Source: Promethearchaeia archaeon (lineage in GTDB: Archaea; Asgardarchaeota; Lokiarchaeia; Sigyniarchaeales; SOKP01). From it: a stretch of DNA of 32,000 nucleotides. Under the pieces are notes generated by a model, which was not told the origin of the DNA, made no database searches, and worked only from the letters and a program-made list of their open reading frames with translations. Each line of letters starts with the position of its first letter. Position 1 is the first letter of the stretch. Positions 2,248-12,305 of this stretch are shown here, in pieces. The position numbers were made by a program, and so were the translations under genes. Where the stretch lies: NCBI GenBank assembly GCA_046497275.1, contig JAWOFX010000175.1:1-32000 (forward strand), given 5' to 3'.

Positions 2248-2898
2248 ATCGGTCTTAAAGATAAACTTTTCCCAAAGAAGGGAAGTGACAAAGATATCAC
2301 AATAACCAAAGCGAAAAGCCATATTCGAAAACTTGCATTGATGAACAAAAATTACACTAAACGAGCTGAGATCAGTAGAAAGAATGCTAAAATTGCCTTG
2401 AAGCGTGGTGAAAAAAATAGAGCAAAGAACTATTTAATACAATATAAAAGTTATCAAAATAAAATTGACCGAACAAATAATATTCGGTCAAAAATAGAAA
2501 GACAAATTCAAGCAATAGAAGAAGGGCAATTGGTTTCTCAAACTGGAGATCTAATGGGCGGAATGAGAGATGAACTTAAAGAAATTGCTACTACTGCATC
2601 ACCTACCAGAGCAGCGGAAATAAATGAAGATGCTGAATTATATGTCACTGAAATAGAGGAAGCTGCAGAAATATTAGCTGGAGATCCAGAAATTGATTTG
2701 GCTATTGATGTGAATGATGAATTAGAACAATTAGAGACGGAAATGTTGCTTGAGCAAGGAGGCACAATGCCTGAAGTCCCTTCAGACGAATTACAATATA
2801 TCTCTGAATTTGATACGGAATTAGAAGAACCTGAACTTCAAGATAAAGAAAAGTTAGAGAAAGAAATTGAAAAGTTAAGAAAAGAATTAGAAGAATAA
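2248..2898 (+). CDS. ESCRT-III / Snf7-family protein (Vps20/32/60-like), probable non-AUG start, 216 aa
   Basis: The frame is open from 2245, giving (M)GLKDKLFPKKGSDKDITITKAKSHIRKL before the track start at 2338. Basic helical hairpin AKIALKRGEKNRAKNYLIQYKSYQNKI and IERQIQAIEE, acidic C-terminal half, MPEVPS motif and terminal amphipathic helix fit the Snf7 family. Confidence 0.85.
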   Translation: MGLKDKLFPKKGSDKDITITKAKSHIRKLALMNKNYTKRAEISRKNAKIALKRGEKNRAKNYLIQYKSYQNKIDRTNNIRSKIERQIQAIEEGQLVSQTGDLMGGMRDELKEIATTASPTRAAEINEDAELYVTEIEEAAEILAGDPEIDLAIDVNDELEQLETEMLLEQGGTMPEVPSDELQYISEFDTELEEPELQDKEKLEKEIEKLRKELEE

Positions 2899-3004
2899 AT
2901 TCATAAATCTCTCATTTTTCATACTATATATTCCTTCTTTATTTAAATTCTTTAATAACCCTAATTTAAATCTTATAGATTTCATTGAAAATTGAAAGAT
3001 AGAA

Positions 3005-4030
3005 TTATTTGAAACTTCTTAGTGCAAAAACCATATTATTTAATTTCCGTATGGTAATCTCATAGGCAAAATTCTCTTCGAATGCATCCTTTAGGGGTTT
3101 AAATCCACAATCTGGTTTAATAATTAAATTTTCTTCTCCATATAATTCAATTGCTTTCTTTATAGTTTGTTTAATTGTTGAAGTCTCCTCAACGTAATCT
3201 TCTATTTTACCATCTTTTTTTGGTTTAATCTTTGTTTCTACTGCCCCAAATCCAAGAAATTTATCATGCTGTTCAAAATGTGATTTTTCAAAAATGTCAT
3301 AATTCTGTTCATTTGTTTGAAATTCATGATCTAAGATATTCACATTTGTTTCTAAGAGAATATCTCTCAAATTTGGGTTTAATTGACCACAGACATGAAT
3401 TGAAGAAAAACTAGATATACCTGAAATTGCTTTATTTAAGATCTCGATAATAAAATCTTTTGAATGAAACATTGTTCTTCGACCTACAATGAGACCTAAA
3501 ATTGGCTCATCCATTGAGATAATATCGATACCCATATCATTATAAGCTTTTCCAATTTGTTTCATTATTTCTGCTAATTTCTCAACGATCCATCCAACCA
3601 TAATCGCTTTTGGTTCCTTAAAGAGCATAGGTTTTTTTCCCTCAGCCAAAGATCCTTTTAAAATGATCTCACTAGCTAAGGTAAATGGTCCAGTTAAACA
3701 TGCTTTAGTTCCCTTGATTTTCTGTTTAAGAGTAGGATTATTATTCAAATATTCAACCAAAAATGTTCCATATTCTAAAGCAACGGATTTTTTTGGAAGC
3801 TCAAAATCACCATTTAAAAAAAATTGGTTATTATTCTCTTGTAGTTCTGGAATTGTTTGGGATAATGGGGTTAAAAATTGAGAGATCATTGAAACCAATT
3901 GCGGATAACATGGGAAATCGATTCCAATATTGATTTGGTCCTGAAAAGCGCGCTCCATGTTGACTGGGGTATTTTCCAAGGGGATACTCCCTACAACCGT
4001 TGTTGATAACCCAAGATCTTCCACTTTCAT
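3005..4030 (-). CDS. metE: Short cobalamin-independent methionine synthase-like protein (catalytic domain only, core-MetE/MesA type)
   Basis: 341 aa with TTVVGSIP, TGPFTLA, DEP, and the Zn-ligand motifs HVCG, HEF and PDCGF. Lacks the N-terminal folate-binding half of bacterial MetE. Confidence 0.85.
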   Translation of the reverse strand: MKVEDLGLSTTVVGSIPLENTPVNMERAFQDQINIGIDFPCYPQLVSMISQFLTPLSQTIPELQENNNQFFLNGDFELPKKSVALEYGTFLVEYLNNNPTLKQKIKGTKACLTGPFTLASEIILKGSLAEGKKPMLFKEPKAIMVGWIVEKLAEIMKQIGKAYNDMGIDIISMDEPILGLIVGRRTMFHSKDFIIEILNKAISGISSFSSIHVCGQLNPNLRDILLETNVNILDHEFQTNEQNYDIFEKSHFEQHDKFLGFGAVETKIKPKKDGKIEDYVEETSTIKQTIKKAIELYGEENLIIKPDCGFKPLKDAFEENFAYEITIRKLNNMVFALRSFK

Positions 4031-4084: not shown

Positions 4085-6238
4085 TTAGCTAAAATATTTC
4101 TTATTATCAAACTTGCGCCCAATATTTCGTATCGACTCATCCTCTCTGATTCGACCATCTAGATTTCGAATTTTTTTATTTATTATGTAGAGGTCTTGCT
4201 TAAGATTTTTAAACGCTCTTAAATAATCCACTTCAGTGATTTTTCCTTCATCAAACTTGGAATCTAAGTTTTTTAAAGTTTCAATAATACTGAATCTTTC
4301 TTTTTTTAATTCGAGCATATGTTCTTGGTTTTCATCTTTTTCTTCAAAAAGACCATCGTTTTGATACTTGCTTGGATCAAATGATAAATCATTATCTCTA
4401 AAAAATTCTGATAGATAATTTCGATTATAATCATGAATAGAAGGATTATTCCTATTTGTATTATATAATGATTCAGAAGATCGATTTAATGATTCTGCGT
4501 TTATAAAATCGCTCAAAGCTCTGTCAAGATTACTCTTCACATTATATCCTTCTTTTTGAGCTCGTTCCAATTTTTTCATCAAAATATTCTTATCTTCAGG
4601 ATTTAATGGATTTGGTTGGTTTCTAGCAAAAATTCGTGAATCGTAATTCTGATATCTATTTGGATATAATATATTTTGGAATTGGAAATTGTTTGGATCA
4701 TTAACATAATTCGGATGATTTTGATATTGATGAGGATATTGATGGGGGTATGAGGAGACCGGTTGATAGAGGTGGGGCTGATTATTTTGAAGAGTTGAAT
4801 ATTCTTGTGAATAAGGCGGTATATTATAGGGATTTATAAAATAATTTGGTGGAGGGGTTGAATTTTGGTTATAATGTTGATTCTGATTATTTCCTCGAAA
4901 ATAATCATTTTGAGGAGGAAAAGTATTATTATTGTGATAACTATTGGGAGAATTTTGAAACCTAGTAGTTCTTTGGTGTTGAAGACCTAAATGATCTGAG
5001 TCGAAATTTTTCTCATTATTGAGTTTGCATTTTAAACTGAAGAACGAATTGATTCCATCTTCGATAAAATTCTTTAAATTCGTAAGATCTATTTTTAAAT
5101 TTTCAATTATATTAGCAGATTTTTTGTCATAAATAGCAGTTTCATCGAAATTTCTTGCGAGTAAAATATATTCAATAACTCTTGAAATTGCTTTATTTGG
5201 GAGAGAAAATTCATATTCCCCATAGGCGAATTTTACAAAAAGTCTTTTGAATAACTTTCCTTTTTCTTTGATTCTCTGAAGATCATCTACAGGGGCTTTA
5301 AATATTAGTTCTTGCTTTGTCTTTAATAATCCATATTCATGAACAAATGATAAATCTAAATTGGTAATAAATAAGATGCCTTTATTTCTTTTGAATATAT
5401 CTTGGTAATTTGTACCATTGGATAATTTAGCATTGATCGCATAAACTGGTTTTTCATCTTCTGCTAAATTTATAAACCTTTTGTACTCAGTAAAATATTT
5501 ATTAATCTTTTCGATAAATGAGAGGTTTTTTTTTATAGAATCGATATCTTTATTCATTGATTCTATATTACTTTCAATAAAATCTCTAATTGATTGATTA
5601 CTTCTATATAGATTTTCTAATATTCCTTCAATAATTCTTATGCTAGTATTAGGTTGAGAATAAATGTCAAAAAAGTATTCTTTATTAAGCGAAAGGTGAT
5701 GAAAATGAATACTTATTTTCTCCATCATTTGATCTTCAATATATTTCACAAGTTTAAACAAAGAAAGGAGTTCTGCTTCCATTTTAGGGAAATGATAGCA
5801 TTTTATAGGTGGAGCTCTTGCTTTTTTTATTTTTTGTCTTAACACATAAAGTCCATTAACAAGATCCCTGAGAGGATCGATAAAATTTCGTGTTTCTTTA
5901 ATTAATTCTAAAAAAGACTGTTCTAATTTTTCTTTTTTTTCATAAATATTAATAATCCGATGAGAATGGCATTTTGGACAAGATTTAATATATTGTGTGA
6001 TCTGGATTACATTATCACTCTCACAGTCTTTACATATTTTTATTGTTTCACCTTTCTTAGAATCGGATTCCTTTATGTCTATATTTTTTGAATTACAATC
6101 TTGGCATACAAATGTTTCTACTTTATCATCATCTAAACAATCAGAGCAACAACTAGCACCACAATTCTCACAATAATAAGCTAAAGGCTCTCTTCCTTGG
6201 CAGAATCTACAGAAATTTTCTGATTTATGCTCTGACAT
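4085..6238 (-). CDS. Multidomain protein: Cys-rich zinc fingers, coiled coil, PH/GRAM-like segment, N/Q/Y/P low-complexity region, C-terminal helical (steadiness-box/SHOCT-like) hairpin
   Basis: 717-aa ORF with AAGGTAA upstream of the ATG. 13 Cys in aa 10-90, mostly CxxC. The coding status is clear, but the domain names come from pattern recognition only. Confidence 0.75.
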   Translation of the reverse strand: MSEHKSENFCRFCQGREPLAYYCENCGASCCSDCLDDDKVETFVCQDCNSKNIDIKESDSKKGETIKICKDCESDNVIQITQYIKSCPKCHSHRIINIYEKKEKLEQSFLELIKETRNFIDPLRDLVNGLYVLRQKIKKARAPPIKCYHFPKMEAELLSLFKLVKYIEDQMMEKISIHFHHLSLNKEYFFDIYSQPNTSIRIIEGILENLYRSNQSIRDFIESNIESMNKDIDSIKKNLSFIEKINKYFTEYKRFINLAEDEKPVYAINAKLSNGTNYQDIFKRNKGILFITNLDLSFVHEYGLLKTKQELIFKAPVDDLQRIKEKGKLFKRLFVKFAYGEYEFSLPNKAISRVIEYILLARNFDETAIYDKKSANIIENLKIDLTNLKNFIEDGINSFFSLKCKLNNEKNFDSDHLGLQHQRTTRFQNSPNSYHNNNTFPPQNDYFRGNNQNQHYNQNSTPPPNYFINPYNIPPYSQEYSTLQNNQPHLYQPVSSYPHQYPHQYQNHPNYVNDPNNFQFQNILYPNRYQNYDSRIFARNQPNPLNPEDKNILMKKLERAQKEGYNVKSNLDRALSDFINAESLNRSSESLYNTNRNNPSIHDYNRNYLSEFFRDNDLSFDPSKYQNDGLFEEKDENQEHMLELKKERFSIIETLKNLDSKFDEGKITEVDYLRAFKNLKQDLYIINKKIRNLDGRIREDESIRNIGRKFDNKKYFS

Positions 6239-6482: not shown

Positions 6483-6776
6483 CTATTTTACTATTTTTAT
6501 TTTCTCCCCTAATGCTTGTCCAGGGAGTCCCGCTTTTTTAAAATAAGCACGAACAGCACCATTATTCCCATGTGCGCGGGTTATTTGTCCTTTTAACTCT
6601 TTTCCACTTGGACTATACCATACGACTGTTCTTCCAATAAGTTTATTTGCTACTTTCCTTGTATTTATATTTGGAAACACTAGTACGCATTGTTTAGGAT
6701 GAATTACATGTCGTGATCTTCTGTAATTTGCTATCCTACCCTCCATGCCAATAATCGTTGTTTTACTTTTACTCAT
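6483..6776 (-). CDS. rpl35ae: 50S ribosomal protein L35Ae
   Basis: 97 aa, basic: GRIANYRRS, LIGRTVVWYSPSGK, GQITRAHGNNGAVRAYF, LPGQALG. Confidence 0.95.
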   Translation of the reverse strand: MSKSKTTIIGMEGRIANYRRSRHVIHPKQCVLVFPNINTRKVANKLIGRTVVWYSPSGKELKGQITRAHGNNGAVRAYFKKAGLPGQALGEKIKIVK

Positions 6777-6856: not shown

Positions 6857-8260
6857 ATGAAAGTCTCGTTTTCAAAAATTAAAATTACTCCAAATGATTA
6901 TATAGGAATGCCCATGGCAGGATATTCGCGTCCTGATCCATGTTTAGGAAAGTTAGATGATATTTTTGCATATGGTGTATTAATAGAGCAAGAGAAATCA
7001 GATGAAAATAACAAGTTTCTTTTATTACTTTCTTTCGATCTCCTAAAAATTCCAATCTCAATTGCCACTTATTTTAAAGAAAAAATTGAAAAAAACTTCA
7101 AGGGAATAAAAGAGAAGAATATTCTAATTCATGCTACGCACACGCATTCTGCTCCAGATCTAACAGGAGAGTTTCATTGGCCTGGTGGTACTTTAGCAGT
7201 CGTTAAGGGTATCATGTTTGGAATAAATCAAAACGATAAATTTATAGTATGGATTGGAGATCAGATTCTTAAGTTAGTCGATCATTTATTAAATTCATTA
7301 CAAAACTCCAAAATTTCATGGATCAAGAAAGTTTTCAATCCAGATATAGTAATTAATCGAAGACATCCCTTAAGAAAACCTAAGCCGGAACTTGGAGTGA
7401 TTTCCTTTAAAGATCTCGATAATAACATAATAGGATTGATTATAAATTATGCTTGTCATCCTACTACCTTATCTTTATTCAATAATAAGCTATCAGCAGA
7501 TTTTCCGGGGAGAATCGTCTCAGAAATCTCAGAAATTACTAATGGAAAAACAAAATGCATATACTTCAACGGTCCAGCAGGGGATTTAAATCCAATCACC
7601 ACATGTGGAACAGATTATGAAGCTTTGAAAGATAATAAAAGTCCTATTTATACCCAATTCGGAACGTACAGACATACAAAAAAACTTGGTTTTCAAATAG
7701 CTGAAGAAGCTTTAAAACTAGCGGAATCAATCCCATCAAACAATTACTATGAAAATATCACATTCCAATTATATATTAAAAATATTTTAGTCCCTCTAAA
7801 AGATCCTAAATATTTTACCTCTTCATGGTTTCAAAATAAGTTATTATACATAATCAAAAAGTATGTTTTATTATCTGTGATCTTAAGTCTCTATGAAAAG
7901 ATTAATTTCCCAATTTTTAAAATTAAGAAAAAGAGAAAACACATTTTTGCGGAAACACTTGTCCAATATATTGATTTTACTGTTCAGAATACAACTAAAA
8001 AGAGAAAATTCACTATTTTTACAGTACCAGGCGAGCTCTTTGAGGAGATAGGAAGGGATCTTATTGAAGAGTCTCCTGTTGGTACTAGTAATAGTTTTTT
8101 ATTTCAAAATTCTAATGATTGGATAGCATATCTTTTTCCAATTAAAGAATATATACAGATTGGAGGGTATGAACCTGTTGCTAGTTTTGGACCTTTGTGC
8201 GGTTTTTATATAGAAAGAGAGATGTTAGATTTTTTTAAAGATATCAAAACACTCTTATAA
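6857..8260 (+). CDS. Neutral/alkaline ceramidase-family Zn amidohydrolase
   Basis: Motifs MPMAGY, ATHTHSAP, NYACHPT, SADFPG, NGPAGDLNP, PGELFEEIG and GGYE. Confidence 0.75.
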   Translation: MKVSFSKIKITPNDYIGMPMAGYSRPDPCLGKLDDIFAYGVLIEQEKSDENNKFLLLLSFDLLKIPISIATYFKEKIEKNFKGIKEKNILIHATHTHSAPDLTGEFHWPGGTLAVVKGIMFGINQNDKFIVWIGDQILKLVDHLLNSLQNSKISWIKKVFNPDIVINRRHPLRKPKPELGVISFKDLDNNIIGLIINYACHPTTLSLFNNKLSADFPGRIVSEISEITNGKTKCIYFNGPAGDLNPITTCGTDYEALKDNKSPIYTQFGTYRHTKKLGFQIAEEALKLAESIPSNNYYENITFQLYIKNILVPLKDPKYFTSSWFQNKLLYIIKKYVLLSVILSLYEKINFPIFKIKKKRKHIFAETLVQYIDFTVQNTTKKRKFTIFTVPGELFEEIGRDLIEESPVGTSNSFLFQNSNDWIAYLFPIKEYIQIGGYEPVASFGPLCGFYIEREMLDFFKDIKTLL

Positions 8261-8312
8261 GTTTCAAGATATAATATTAGGCTTTCAGTTCAATATTTAG
8301 AGATTCTTATAT

Positions 8313-9584
8313 TCACATATCTGAACTAAAATAGCTTGTTTTTTTTGGAAACATAATTTCAATCAATGATTCTGATGAATCCTTTACAATAGCATCCTTT
8401 AAGATATAATTTATTTCCTCAAAAGTACGATCTCCCAGTAATAATTTATATAAAAACCCATTTGGAATCCTAAGATCCGTATTTTGGAGATCTGGATAAC
8501 CTTTATCTAAAAAAATTGTTTCAATTATGCTATTTTTAATTATTAATTTCACAGTTTCTTGATAATCACTTATTATTACATCTTTGTTTAAAGTTTTATA
8601 TTCTGAATTTGCTAATCTCTTTTCTAATATTTTTTTCATTACTTGAAAGAATTTGGAAAGATCTGGAATTTTTACTTGCCAACCATAACTAGAAAGAGGA
8701 GTGCCGCCTAAGGATTTTATGTGGTTAAATAATGAGGAGGTTTCACTAACACTCAGAATCAATAAATCTTCTTTGGAATAATTTGCTATCTTAATTATAT
8801 ATTGCAGTAAAGTATTCATTTGTTTTTGATTTAAATTTGGACCTACTATTTCATAACACTGATTATCATAACTCAACCCTAACGAGAAGTAGCTGCTTTT
8901 TTTACCATCTTTTTCTAAAATATAAGTAGAACGAATTTCTGCGTTATAAATATCATTTAAATATTTAAATTTAAAGCAATCCGGATCAAATTTATTAAAA
9001 ATATAAAAATCTGAATAGAATTCATAATATTTCGATTGAATAAAATTTAGATCATTTATATTAGCTTTTCTAATTTTAATATCTTTAAAATTTGAGTGGG
9101 GAATGTTTGAGATTGGTATTTGTATTCGTTCATCTAAAGAAGATACGAATACATAACCTAATTTGCGATAATAAAAAGGGATTCCTCTTATTACTGAAAA
9201 AATATATTCTCTTTCACGCATTATTCTTTCATATAATTGGTTTAAAATCCTAATAAATCCCCTTCCCCGATATTTTTCAATTGTTCCAACAAACTCCATT
9301 TCACATATATTTAAATCTATATTTTCAATCTGCCATTTTAAAGGAGCTAAACATAGAGAAGAGACCATTCTATTTTTTTCATCATCCTTGATATATAACC
9401 ACATAATATCATTTCTTGTAGGATGTTCTAAAAATATACGGCGAATATAGGTATTCAAGATCTCTTCATGATGAACTTCCATATTTAAATTTATAATTGC
9501 TTCCAACTGTTCTTTATTATCTTCAGCAATATGAATGCTAAAATTAGTATCAATTTTTTCGCTATATCCTTTTTTAAATTTCAT
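8313..9584 (-). CDS. GNAT acetyltransferase, Eis-like (tandem GNAT plus SCP2-like C-terminus)
   Basis: VGTIEKYRGRGF (acetyl-CoA motif A) and GIPFYYRKLGY; 423-aa length typical of Eis-like proteins. Confidence 0.75.
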   Translation of the reverse strand: MKFKKGYSEKIDTNFSIHIAEDNKEQLEAIINLNMEVHHEEILNTYIRRIFLEHPTRNDIMWLYIKDDEKNRMVSSLCLAPLKWQIENIDLNICEMEFVGTIEKYRGRGFIRILNQLYERIMREREYIFSVIRGIPFYYRKLGYVFVSSLDERIQIPISNIPHSNFKDIKIRKANINDLNFIQSKYYEFYSDFYIFNKFDPDCFKFKYLNDIYNAEIRSTYILEKDGKKSSYFSLGLSYDNQCYEIVGPNLNQKQMNTLLQYIIKIANYSKEDLLILSVSETSSLFNHIKSLGGTPLSSYGWQVKIPDLSKFFQVMKKILEKRLANSEYKTLNKDVIISDYQETVKLIIKNSIIETIFLDKGYPDLQNTDLRIPNGFLYKLLLGDRTFEEINYILKDAIVKDSSESLIEIMFPKKTSYFSSDM

Positions 9585-9716: not shown

Positions 9717-10916
9717 CTACACTATTAATTCATATGCTTTTTTCCAAGCGTCTTTATTGATTTTATTAAACTTTTCCATGAAATCATCTTCCTTGAGATT
9801 TTCTTCTTGTTCAACAAGATCTCTGACATTTAAATAAATTTTTCTTTCCAAAGCATCAAATTCATTCATATAAGTTAACTTTTCTTTTTCATTGACTTGC
9901 TTTTTGAAAGGTTCGATAAATTTTTCATGTTTTATCCAAAACCAATCTTCATCTTTTTTCTCATACGGACCTGGAGGGTTTACTTTTTGATCTTGTATCG
10001 GAAATGTATAAGGTTTATACATACTCAAACAAGGATGGTTGCTTCCTGTAAACCAATGAATTGATTTTTTCTCAGGAGGTTTTAAATGCGAAACTTGAGA
10101 ACCCACAGATTCAAAAGCACCATGCATACATATTCCAGCTTCATGCTCTCGCAAGAATTCCATCATCATATCAACTGTAATAGATCCTGCAGCATCAGTT
10201 AATAATTCTGTTGATTTTACTACTCGTGGAGTTAAAGGGATATTATCCCCGATAACTTTCGATTTGGCAAAAGTCTTAGCAAAATCAAAATCATCATCAT
10301 CTTTGCAATATTCGTTTTCAATAGCATGTTGAATAATCCCTTCTCTTCTCATGTCTCCCTTACCGCGAATTGATAAGCTATTAGATATAGCCCTTACATC
10401 CTTTACTTCCTCGACGATCCACCATTTATCAGATGTCTCTAATACATATGCTTCTTGATGATCTGCTATAATATAGGAATTATGATATAACATTTTTCCG
10501 TTATATGCACAATTACCGCCTTGATTGTATTTTTCAAGAAGATCTATTATTGTATCAAGCGCACATTCTGCCGTTTTACATCGTTCTAATCCCAATCGTA
10601 AAAGATCCATCCCAAGTAATCCAGTTTTTCTTATTTTTTCTTTAGTATATACCGCCTCGTTGCCGATGGTTACCCCAAACTCGTTGGTACCCATCTCCGC
10701 CCCCCACATCCACCACGGTTGGCTTAAAAGTACAGCATAGGTTTCTTTTACCTGAGGTATAGATATATAAGTGCATTCTACTTCATCTTCCTCATGAGTT
10801 CTGCGCGGTTGATGTGTTATTAATTGCACTTCATCACTCAGACGGTCACTATTTTTCCCAAAGATCGTATACTCATCTAAGGAAGCGTTTGGTAAGGATA
10901 TTAAGGTATCACACAT
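9717..10916 (-). CDS. Peptidase C69 / secernin-like Ntn hydrolase
   Basis: Starts MCDT (N-terminal nucleophile Cys), with FGKNSDR, WGAEMGTNEFGVTIGNEAV and GMDLLRLGLER. ATG at 10916 preferred over GTG at 10925. Confidence 0.88.
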   Translation of the reverse strand: MCDTLISLPNASLDEYTIFGKNSDRLSDEVQLITHQPRRTHEEDEVECTYISIPQVKETYAVLLSQPWWMWGAEMGTNEFGVTIGNEAVYTKEKIRKTGLLGMDLLRLGLERCKTAECALDTIIDLLEKYNQGGNCAYNGKMLYHNSYIIADHQEAYVLETSDKWWIVEEVKDVRAISNSLSIRGKGDMRREGIIQHAIENEYCKDDDDFDFAKTFAKSKVIGDNIPLTPRVVKSTELLTDAAGSITVDMMMEFLREHEAGICMHGAFESVGSQVSHLKPPEKKSIHWFTGSNHPCLSMYKPYTFPIQDQKVNPPGPYEKKDEDWFWIKHEKFIEPFKKQVNEKEKLTYMNEFDALERKIYLNVRDLVEQEENLKEDDFMEKFNKINKDAWKKAYELIV

Positions 10917-11030
10917 AATTATCACATCGTGAAGTTTTAGAATTAATTAATTATCTTTTATTTGTTTTTAATTAGAATTGCAGTTTCTATATTATATTAT
11001 TAATCATTATTTTCTATTAACAAGAGTCCC

Positions 11031-11069
11031 AAATGAATAAAAATGAAATTGAGTAATTTTTATTCATTT
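11031..11069. repeat. Perfect 14-bp inverted repeat with an 11-nt loop
   Basis: AAATGAATAAAAAT (11031-11044) and ATTTTTATTCATTT (11056-11069), read directly from the sequence. Confidence 0.8.
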
Positions 11070-11114
11070 TTCAAAGATTTTCAGTAGTAATTATTTTGAA
11101 ATCTTCTATTTGGG

Positions 11115-12305
11115 TTATTTTAAGGTTTCATGAAAAATTGAAAAAGGTGCGGCTGTGGATCTCCAGATTGCGATATCCTCAAATCCTAATATTTCTGCAA
11201 AAGTTTTTTTTCCATTACACGTCTTTTTAACTTTTTCCCATAAATTTATTGCAACATCTTCTACTTTTTTGTCTTTCGTGATAATTGTGCTCGCATCAAT
11301 ATCAATATTGCTTGCCATCCAATCACAAGTCTTCGGATTTCCACAAATTTTAATTACGGGAGAAACGGGGTTTCCACAGGGACTCCCTCTTCCGGTAGTC
11401 ATAATAATAATCTGCGCCCCTGCCGCTGCCAATCCTGTCATGCTTTCAACGTCCAAACCTGGTTCTATCATCAGCCAGAGACCTTTATCCTTAGGTTTTT
11501 CTGAATATTCTAATATTCCTTCAATTTGTGCGGTTCCCGCTTTCGCAATAGTACCTAATGATTTTTCCTCAATAGTGGTTAATCCCCCTTCTATATTTCC
11601 AGGAGTTGGTTGAATTCCCCGAAAATCTATCCCAATTTTCATAGTGTTATTTAGAAAAGTATCTATAGTCTCTCTTATCTTCTCCGCAACTTTATCACTC
11701 TTAGCTCGTTCCATAAGAAGATGTTCCGTGCCTACCCATTCGGTAAATTCAGGTAGGATTGAGGTACCTCCCAGCTCCACGACTTTGTCTGAGACTATTC
11801 CTACAGCAGGATTTGCAGTAATCCCTGAGATTGAATCGGATCCTCCACATTCGAGACCTAAAATTAAATTAGAGAAATCAAAGGGCTCTCTTTTCAATTC
11901 TTTAGCTTCCTCAGCCATTTTCTGACCAATTGTGATGCCTTTATCGATAGCAGCAGTTGTCCCTCCTTGGACGTCTTGGACATCAAAATATTCTATAGGT
12001 TTTTTAGATCTTTTAATTTGCTTTCCAATTAGTTTACTCGTTATATTTTCACACCCAAGGCCGACTACAACTGTTCCAAAAACATTAGGATTTTTGCCTA
12101 ATCCCACTAAAGTTCTTAAAGTATATGAAAAATCCGGTCCAAACTGTCCACACCCAAGTGGATGGGTAATCGCCACGGAATTATCAACCTTTTGTGATAT
12201 TTGATCAACGACATGATTTACGCAAACCACAGATGAAATTATTGCGATTTTATTCCTGATTCCAATTTCTCCTTTCGGTCGCTCATATCCCATGAATTCT
12301 TCCAT
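11115..12305 (-). CDS. UxaA/GarD-family dehydratase, large (catalytic) subunit
   Basis: GYERPKGEIGIRN, SSVVCVN, HPLGCGQ, VGLGCE, GLECGGSD, GGLTTIEEKSLG and TTGRG. The true start is probably ATG at 12305, overlapping the upstream stop (TAATG); the track's 18 extra residues overlap the SAF gene. Confidence 0.88.
   Translation of the reverse strand: MEEFMGYERPKGEIGIRNKIAIISSVVCVNHVVDQISQKVDNSVAITHPLGCGQFGPDFSYTLRTLVGLGKNPNVFGTVVVGLGCENITSKLIGKQIKRSKKPIEYFDVQDVQGGTTAAIDKGITIGQKMAEEAKELKREPFDFSNLILGLECGGSDSISGITANPAVGIVSDKVVELGGTSILPEFTEWVGTEHLLMERAKSDKVAEKIRETIDTFLNNTMKIGIDFRGIQPTPGNIEGGLTTIEEKSLGTIAKAGTAQIEGILEYSEKPKDKGLWLMIEPGLDVESMTGLAAAGAQIIIMTTGRGSPCGNPVSPVIKICGNPKTCDWMASNIDIDASTIITKDKKVEDVAINLWEKVKKTCNGKKTFAEILGFEDIAIWRSTAAPFSIFHETLK

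Follow-up and report, generated by a model that had tools for sequence, protein, structure and literature searches.

The Znr_CC_PH_SB gene

The window analysed here, 32,000 nucleotides from a Promethearchaeia archaeon (assembly GCA_046497275.1, contig JAWOFX010000175.1, positions 1 to 32,000), carries on its minus strand an open reading frame (ORF), 4085–6238, that starts with ATG, is free of internal stops and encodes a protein of 717 amino acids (aa). [quoted passage not shown] The family was defined computationally by Makarova et al. 2024 in mBio (PMC10936438), who described three zinc ribbons, a pleckstrin homology (PH) domain, a coiled coil and a steadiness box (SB), and considered it a 'likely ESCRT-I component'; cog.011556 is also listed by Lu et al. 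as a steadiness/Vps23-box cluster. All features of the family are found in the protein of the window, i.e. three N-terminal zinc ribbons, a coiled-coil or helical region, a PH fold and a C-terminal steadiness box. The original prediction, made from the letters of the window, had presented the gene as a candidate new ESCRT-associated adaptor of unnamed architecture, a claim that fails because the family had already been named, and its description of the protein was correct in full, with 717 aa, 13 N-terminal cysteines, long helices, a beta-rich segment followed by a helix, a tract of 106 aa, a C-terminal hairpin and a Snf7 gene at 1.2 kb.

A word-indexed search gave more than 261 full-length homologues with identities of 45–96%, and what was observed is thus not due to chance. 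Several of the homologues bear 'B-box zinc finger protein' as their sole annotation, and no NCBIfam model matches the 717-aa protein. When 24 homologues are aligned conservation is high over the first 407 residues, with a mean column identity of 70%, the next approximately 200 residues vary in both length and sequence, and the final 90 or so residues are again conserved.

The N-terminal module

Residues 1–412 were modelled with AlphaFold2 (AF2) with a mean predicted local distance difference test (pLDDT) value of 77. Residues 10–90 contain 13 cysteines, namely six CxxC pairs and C30, and all 12 cysteines of the pairs are invariant across the 24 homologues and the pairs recur in distant orthologues. 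The zinc region (residues 1–97) is modelled as beta hairpins and shows weak Pfam matches to zf-B_box in 16 of the 24 members, to A2L_zn_ribbon in nine and to Zn_Ribbon_TF in seven, and the module has ribbon- or B-box-like CxxC pairs and not a FYVE finger. The helices of the following stalk are located at residues 98–141, 152–190 and 197–250, and the PH-like domain has six strands between residues 266 and 345, with a helix at 350–362 that closes the fold. Two more helices, 372–380 and 386–411, are predicted with pLDDT values of 80–92, and within this last part I392, E393, I396, S398, F399 and F400 are invariant in the alignment. From the alignment and the model, the zinc sites, the three-helix stalk and the PH-fold domain form one conserved N-terminal unit.

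The sequence-level matches to PH domains are all weak, with GRAM in three family members and bPH_3 in P0221, a short relative of 222 aa in which bPH_3 (E 0.0015) is joined to a Vps23_core-like hairpin. No SHOCT or bPH_3 match above the Pfam cut-off is present in the family, bPH_3 being seen by fold and in P0221. The neighbours of residues 56–374 in the ESM Atlas include bacterial clusters of the types Zn_Ribbon+bPH_3 and bPH_3+SHOCT, which resemble the PH part, and one eukaryotic Vps36 cluster. In Foldseek searches of the PDB neither the N-terminal nor the C-terminal model had a match with an E-value of 0.001 or better, the rankings being informative and the E-values weak.

The C-terminal steadiness box

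In the C-terminal model two helices, residues 628–663 and 669–711, form a hairpin with a pLDDT of about 95 behind a disordered linker. Pfam Vps23_core matches 19 of the 24 family members, the best at E 1.1e-4 and the 717-aa protein at E 0.011. A family-wide profile was compared with 1.84 billion representatives and picked up 184 proteins, and by its C-terminal positions it reaches the UEV+Vps23_core protein P0252 at E 2.7e-8, the own Vps23_core score of this protein being 28.6 bits with a cut-off of 26.8 bits. P0260, which is also reached by the profile, resolves in Pfam as UEV, SB and Vps28. Since the family profile reaches such UEV+Vps23_core proteins, the hairpin is, on profile evidence, a homologue of the SB found in true Asgard UEV-Vps23.

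The best fold matches of the hairpin in the PDB are to the ESCRT-I headpiece, with yeast Vps23 in 2f6m (2f6m_C), 2f66 (2f66_A) and 2caz, and human 6vme. The template modelling (TM) scores by target are 0.74–0.91 with root-mean-square deviations of 0.6–0.8 Å over 54–61 columns, and the E-values of 0.1–0.9 are weak as expected for about 60 residues. When the profile of the C-terminal region was searched against PDB sequences, two yeast Vps23 chains were found with E 0.064 and 0.15; the top match, a ferritin heavy chain (E 0.0055, over the linker and the first helix), was judged to be a compositional or helical artefact. The hairpin is nearer to Vps23_core than to CdvA, which matches one of the 24 members, and SHOCT matches two of the 24 with E 0.034 or worse. 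The turn of the hairpin carries a motif, F/Y-D-x-G-x-I-S/T-E-x-D-Y, that resembles SHOCT, and a deep link among the SB, CdvA and SHOCT hairpins is possible.

One locus from a distant Asgard family (L131, G298:C138:73500-93400) has an ORF, 9901–11706, that joins the zinc, helix and PH module to another C-terminus with no hairpin match, and the hairpin is found on a separate protein of 236 aa (ORF 2813–3523) about 6 kb away. The gene may have been split or re-fused at this locus.

The low-complexity linker

The core of the linker, residues 427–532, contains 24 asparagines, 16 prolines, 15 glutamines and 15 tyrosines in 106 aa, or 66% as compared to 26% in the whole protein, and five charged residues. 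Three short motifs are conserved in the linker, residues 521–536, 547–562 (a predicted helix) and 603–616, the conservation being centred on N531/Y532, L553 and N607/S610/F613; otherwise both length and sequence vary in the alignment, and the pLDDT is 45–71. In distant Asgard orthologues a few tens of residues separate the N-terminal module from the hairpin, and the orthologues in the most distant families are mostly 467–532 aa long with the same N-terminal module, a short linker and the hairpin. As judged from these lengths the N/Q/Y/P tract is an expansion, in Loki-type lineages and in family f3, of a linker that is normally short, and the reading of the tract as a conserved prion-like module gets no support from a variable linker that shrinks in this way. 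Late-domain motifs were considered and rejected, as PPNY at residue 463 recurs, among the homologues shown, in just the two closest, and the 717-aa protein has neither P(S/T)AP nor YPxL.

Gene order and linkage to ESCRT-III

The table of Makarova et al. gives for the GC14_75 member, of 650 aa, the order PepD, L35Ae, Znr_CC_PH_SB, MetE, a Vps20-family ESCRT-III gene on the opposite strand, and DHQS. The order in the window (Table 1) is the same but reversed, with two inserted genes between L35Ae and PepD, and the same order is found in most of 80 Loki-type loci collected from public genomes. At the family level the two proteins are the same, the copy of the window being longer by its N/Q/Y/P linker. 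The inserted genes encode a protein of 467 aa with a weak match to the N-terminal part of neutral ceramidase (E 3.3e-6, under the cut-off) and a GNAT-domain protein of 423 aa.

Table 1. Coordinates of the Znr_CC_PH_SB gene, its predicted parts and the neighbouring genes in the window.
Feature	Position	Strand	Basis or remark
DHQS	981–2108		Gene order
Vps20/32/60-type ESCRT-III (Snf7) gene	2248–2898	+	Convergent; Pfam PF03357, E 1.6e-11, above cut-off; 2248 is the probable start
MetE-like gene	3005–4030	-	Pfam Meth_synt_2, E 1.3e-8; between the adaptor and ESCRT-III genes
Whole adaptor gene	4085–6238	-	717 aa; Asgard Znr_CC_PH_SB orthologue (cog.011556)
Steadiness-box helical hairpin, residues 628–711	4106–4357	-	Pfam, profile link, fold
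Low-complexity linker, residues 412–620	4379–5005	-	N/Q/Y/P core, residues 427–532, at 4643–4960
Conserved helices closing the N-terminal module, residues 372–411	5006–5125	-	AF2 and alignment
PH-superfold domain, residues 262–366	5141–5455	-	Six strands and closing helix
Antiparallel three-helix bundle, 'coiled coil' stalk, residues 98–250	5489–5947	-	AF2 model
Zinc-ribbon-type region, residues 1–97	5948–6238	-	Six CxxC pairs, which could make up three Zn(Cys)4 sites
Ribosomal protein L35Ae	6483–6776	-	Pfam and NCBIfam; upstream of the adaptor gene
Two inserted genes	6857–9584		Between L35Ae and the C69 peptidase; not in the GC14_75 order
C69 peptidase	9717–10925		Gene order

The end of the Snf7 gene is 1187 bp from the stop codon of the adaptor gene, with one MetE-like gene between them, and the Lokiarchaeum orthologue of this Snf7 gene has been classed as Vps20 family, cog.001938. 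Sixty-seven of the Loki-type loci have at least 2.5 kb of sequence downstream of the gene, and in 65 of them a convergent Vps20-type Snf7 gene is located there, 28 times tail to tail with 26–166 bp between the genes and 37 times with the MetE-like gene alone between them. Since it is absent between the pair in 28 of 65 loci, the MetE-like gene is probably a passenger. In 68 of 76 loci L35Ae is found upstream, no more than 800 bp away. In a second sample, made up of 20 loci of Asgard families farther away, a Snf7 gene is found within 8 kb, mostly adjacent or within 4 kb, in nine of the 11 families sampled, and the families with a nearby Snf7 gene include f3, f10, f11, f19, f20, f21, f26 and f30. 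These counts are not independent events because the genomes are related, yet the pairing extends across a large part of the phylum, and the linkage to ESCRT-III, which had been proposed as a check by synteny, is thus conserved across Asgard genomes.

The start codon of the Snf7 gene of the window is probably ATC at 2248 and not TTG at 2338, as there is a stop codon at 2242 and an AGGTGA a few bases upstream, and translation from 2248 yields the conserved x-GLK-x-KLFPKK sequence with which the orthologues begin. In the window together with 50 orthologous loci bearing this motif the codon at the start is ATG in 23, GTG in 11, TTG in three, ATC in nine, ATA in four and CTG in one, and each of the loci has a stop codon 1–10 codons upstream, which suggests that near-cognate initiation of this gene is recurrent.

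Distribution

The N-terminal module occurs in 273 of the 400 Asgard genomes. It is near-universal in the family to which the window belongs (127 of 134 genomes) and in f3 (13 of 14) and occurs in many more families, and it is missing from some (0 of 31, 0 of 22 and 0 of 12 genomes). Distant matches with names are labelled Baldr-, Heimdall-, Odin- or Asgardarchaeia. Two contigs carry labels from outside Asgard, one Nanopelagicaceae and one Aenigmarchaeota, and both are likely mis-binned because of the Loki-type synteny of the former and the length of only 3.8 kb of the latter. On the former (L109, DATKTW010000152.1), whose label reads 'Candidatus Nanopelagicaceae bacterium', the gene is accompanied by L35Ae, Snf7 and DHQS in the Loki-type order. 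Named homologues are thus from Asgard only, and not widespread in bacteria that lack ESCRT.

Other ESCRT genes and the Vps28 model

The main ESCRT cluster of the genome, with Vps22, Vps25, Vps4 and the other of its two Snf7 genes, is located on contig C39, and a Vps28-like gene of 214 aa is found on contig C33 (L043:4439-6421), directly after the gene for a 311-aa zinc-ribbon protein of no known family and before L34e. The adaptor gene is therefore located outside the main cluster, as had been predicted. The Vps28-like gene and the adaptor gene have in common a ribosomal-gene neighbour, L34e and L35Ae respectively.

A second SB-type protein of about 590 aa is encoded at C24:8640-10442 on the plus strand, where a C-terminal hairpin (hidden Markov model E 1.5e-6) stands behind a long E/K-rich and P-rich region, and there is a weaker candidate at C158:12206-13630 on the minus strand, which also has a faint Vps28 match. 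This fits the published remark that multidomain proteins bearing the SB are numerous in Lokiarchaeia. A Pfam search for UEV in the genome gave no match, but control genomes equally gave none, so the result is uninformative on absence.

Residues 1–112 of the Vps28-like protein were modelled together with residues 614–717 of the adaptor, and the interaction prediction score from aligned errors (ipSAE) was 0.81, compared to 0.01 for the best of three controls. The mark used for ipSAE is attained in 58 of 80 solved complexes and in two of 110 mismatched pairs, counts that are only rough because our own alignments were used. The docking runs share at least 97% of their contacts, with a partner pLDDT of at least 75, and the predicted interface lies between Vps28 residues 9–42 and 71 and adaptor residues 662–688. 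By surface plasmon resonance (SPR) a Helarchaeial Vps23 domain has been found to bind Vps28, and in published yeast two-hybrid experiments a free-standing Loki SB protein binds both Vps28 and Vps22.

Comparison to known ESCRT proteins

The adaptor resembles Asgard UEV-Vps23 and eukaryotic Vps23/TSG101 in its steadiness-box hairpin at the C-terminus after a helical or linker region, and in the predicted docking on the N-terminal hairpin of Vps28. These proteins begin with UEV, whereas the 717-aa protein has zinc ribbons, a three-helix bundle and a PH domain, lacks P(S/T)AP, and gives no match to UEV or UQ_con in Pfam at E up to 1. With the GLUE domain of Vps36 it has in common a PH fold combined with zinc fingers, but in Vps36 the zinc is inserted in the PH domain and is accompanied by EAP30/winged-helix domains, whereas here the PH domain comes after the zinc sites, Pfam gives no EAP30 match and the C-terminal half consists of the disordered linker and the hairpin. 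CdvA, which recruits ESCRT-III in the cell division of Thermoproteota, is similar in its N-terminal domain that binds membrane or partners, its coiled coil, a helical hairpin that is related, and the linkage of its gene to an ESCRT-III gene, but the PRC barrel of CdvA and its C-terminal peptide for binding to the winged helix of CdvB are not seen in the 717-aa protein. The likeness to Hrs/Vps27 is one of module type only (zinc module, coiled coil and P/Q-rich tail), and FYVE, VHS and UIM gave no match in Pfam at E up to 1. With no UEV, VHS or winged-helix domain the protein belongs to none of Hrs, TSG101 and Vps36. The module list of the original prediction (zinc fingers, helical stalk, PH-like fold, low-complexity tract and steadiness-box hairpin) and the association with ESCRT hold in models, fold and profile searches and synteny, and segment by segment the folds are the expected ones and not unrelated ones.

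Proposed role

As an ESCRT-I-type early adaptor the protein would bind membrane and/or cargo with its zinc and PH head, by analogy to PH, GLUE and GRAM domains and to the zinc fingers of ESCRT-II. The disordered linker, approximately 200 residues in Loki-type genomes, would tether the steadiness-box hairpin, which is predicted in silico to dock on the N-terminal hairpin of Vps28, and Vps28 might then pass on to Vps22/Vps25, the Vps20-type ESCRT-III of the neighbouring gene and Vps4, as suggested by the order of the ESCRT pathway, by the published two-hybrid and SPR results on other SB proteins and by the pairing of the genes. Several observations speak against this role. The SB score of the 717-aa protein itself is under the Pfam cut-off, a two-helix hairpin is a simple fold, and the docking score may reflect likeness or memory and not binding because ESCRT-I headpiece complexes have been solved. 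The adaptor gene is paired with ESCRT-III and not with Vps28 or Vps22, which fits a direct link to ESCRT-III at least equally well, the two genes converge and are consequently not co-transcribed, and three f31 genomes as well as one f18 genome show no Snf7 gene at a distance of up to 9 kb. The literature search gave no experimental paper on Znr_CC_PH_SB and no experimental datum for any member.

The main rival explanation builds on this pairing: with the PH and zinc parts bound to membrane, the protein might recruit or nucleate the neighbouring Vps20-type ESCRT-III directly, in the manner of CdvA, bypassing both Vps28 and ESCRT-II. Direct recruitment has precedents in CdvA-CdvB of Thermoproteota and in Bro1/ALIX-Snf7. 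We consider this unlikely, as the hairpin is nearer to Vps23_core than to CdvA, the docking model with Vps28 passes its controls, and convergent genes are not co-transcribed. Very improbable is a function outside ESCRT, where the protein would be a generic prokaryotic membrane-associated protein with a zinc ribbon, a bacterial PH domain and a SHOCT-like hairpin for oligomerisation, its likeness to ESCRT being superficial; the bacterial ESM Atlas clusters, the weak SHOCT matches and the domain pair of P0221 would be in line with this, but the family profile reaches true UEV-Vps23, the top fold matches are ESCRT-I headpiece chains, the ESCRT-III pairing is conserved across Asgard families and the named homologues are confined to Asgard. 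There is equally little to be expected of the N/Q/Y/P tract as the functional core, either as a prion-like or condensate domain concentrating ESCRT parts or as a carrier of PPxY/YP late-domain-like motifs. Its composition, with few charges, would favour this and the bias recurs in Loki-type homologues, but the tract varies and is cut down to a few tens of residues in other Asgard families, PPNY is limited to the two closest homologues shown, and a low pLDDT is expected of a plain disordered linker. The role as an ESCRT-I-type adaptor is thus the preferred one.

A wider interpretation, which we regard as quite doubtful, is that Znr_CC_PH_SB could be an ancestral Asgard initiator that targets ESCRT to membranes and replaces the missing ESCRT-0 and Vps37, acting via Vps28 or directly in the manner of CdvA with the Vps20-type ESCRT-III beside it across at least 10 Asgard families, the Loki N/Q/Y/P linker with its three motifs adding an assembly of multivalent or condensate type.

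The gene is a rediscovery of a published family, and what it contributes is a confirmation of the earlier published prediction from an independent genome, together with handles for experiments, i.e. domain boundaries, a predicted Vps28 interface and linker motifs. Added to what was published are the counts of ESCRT-III pairing, the linker as a lineage-specific expansion, and the Vps28 docking model. An open question of eukaryogenesis is the origin of the early steps of ESCRT, in which membrane and cargo are selected. In Asgard archaea a candidate for this role is Znr_CC_PH_SB, which is widespread there, absent from eukaryotes and persistently linked to an ESCRT-III of the nucleating type.

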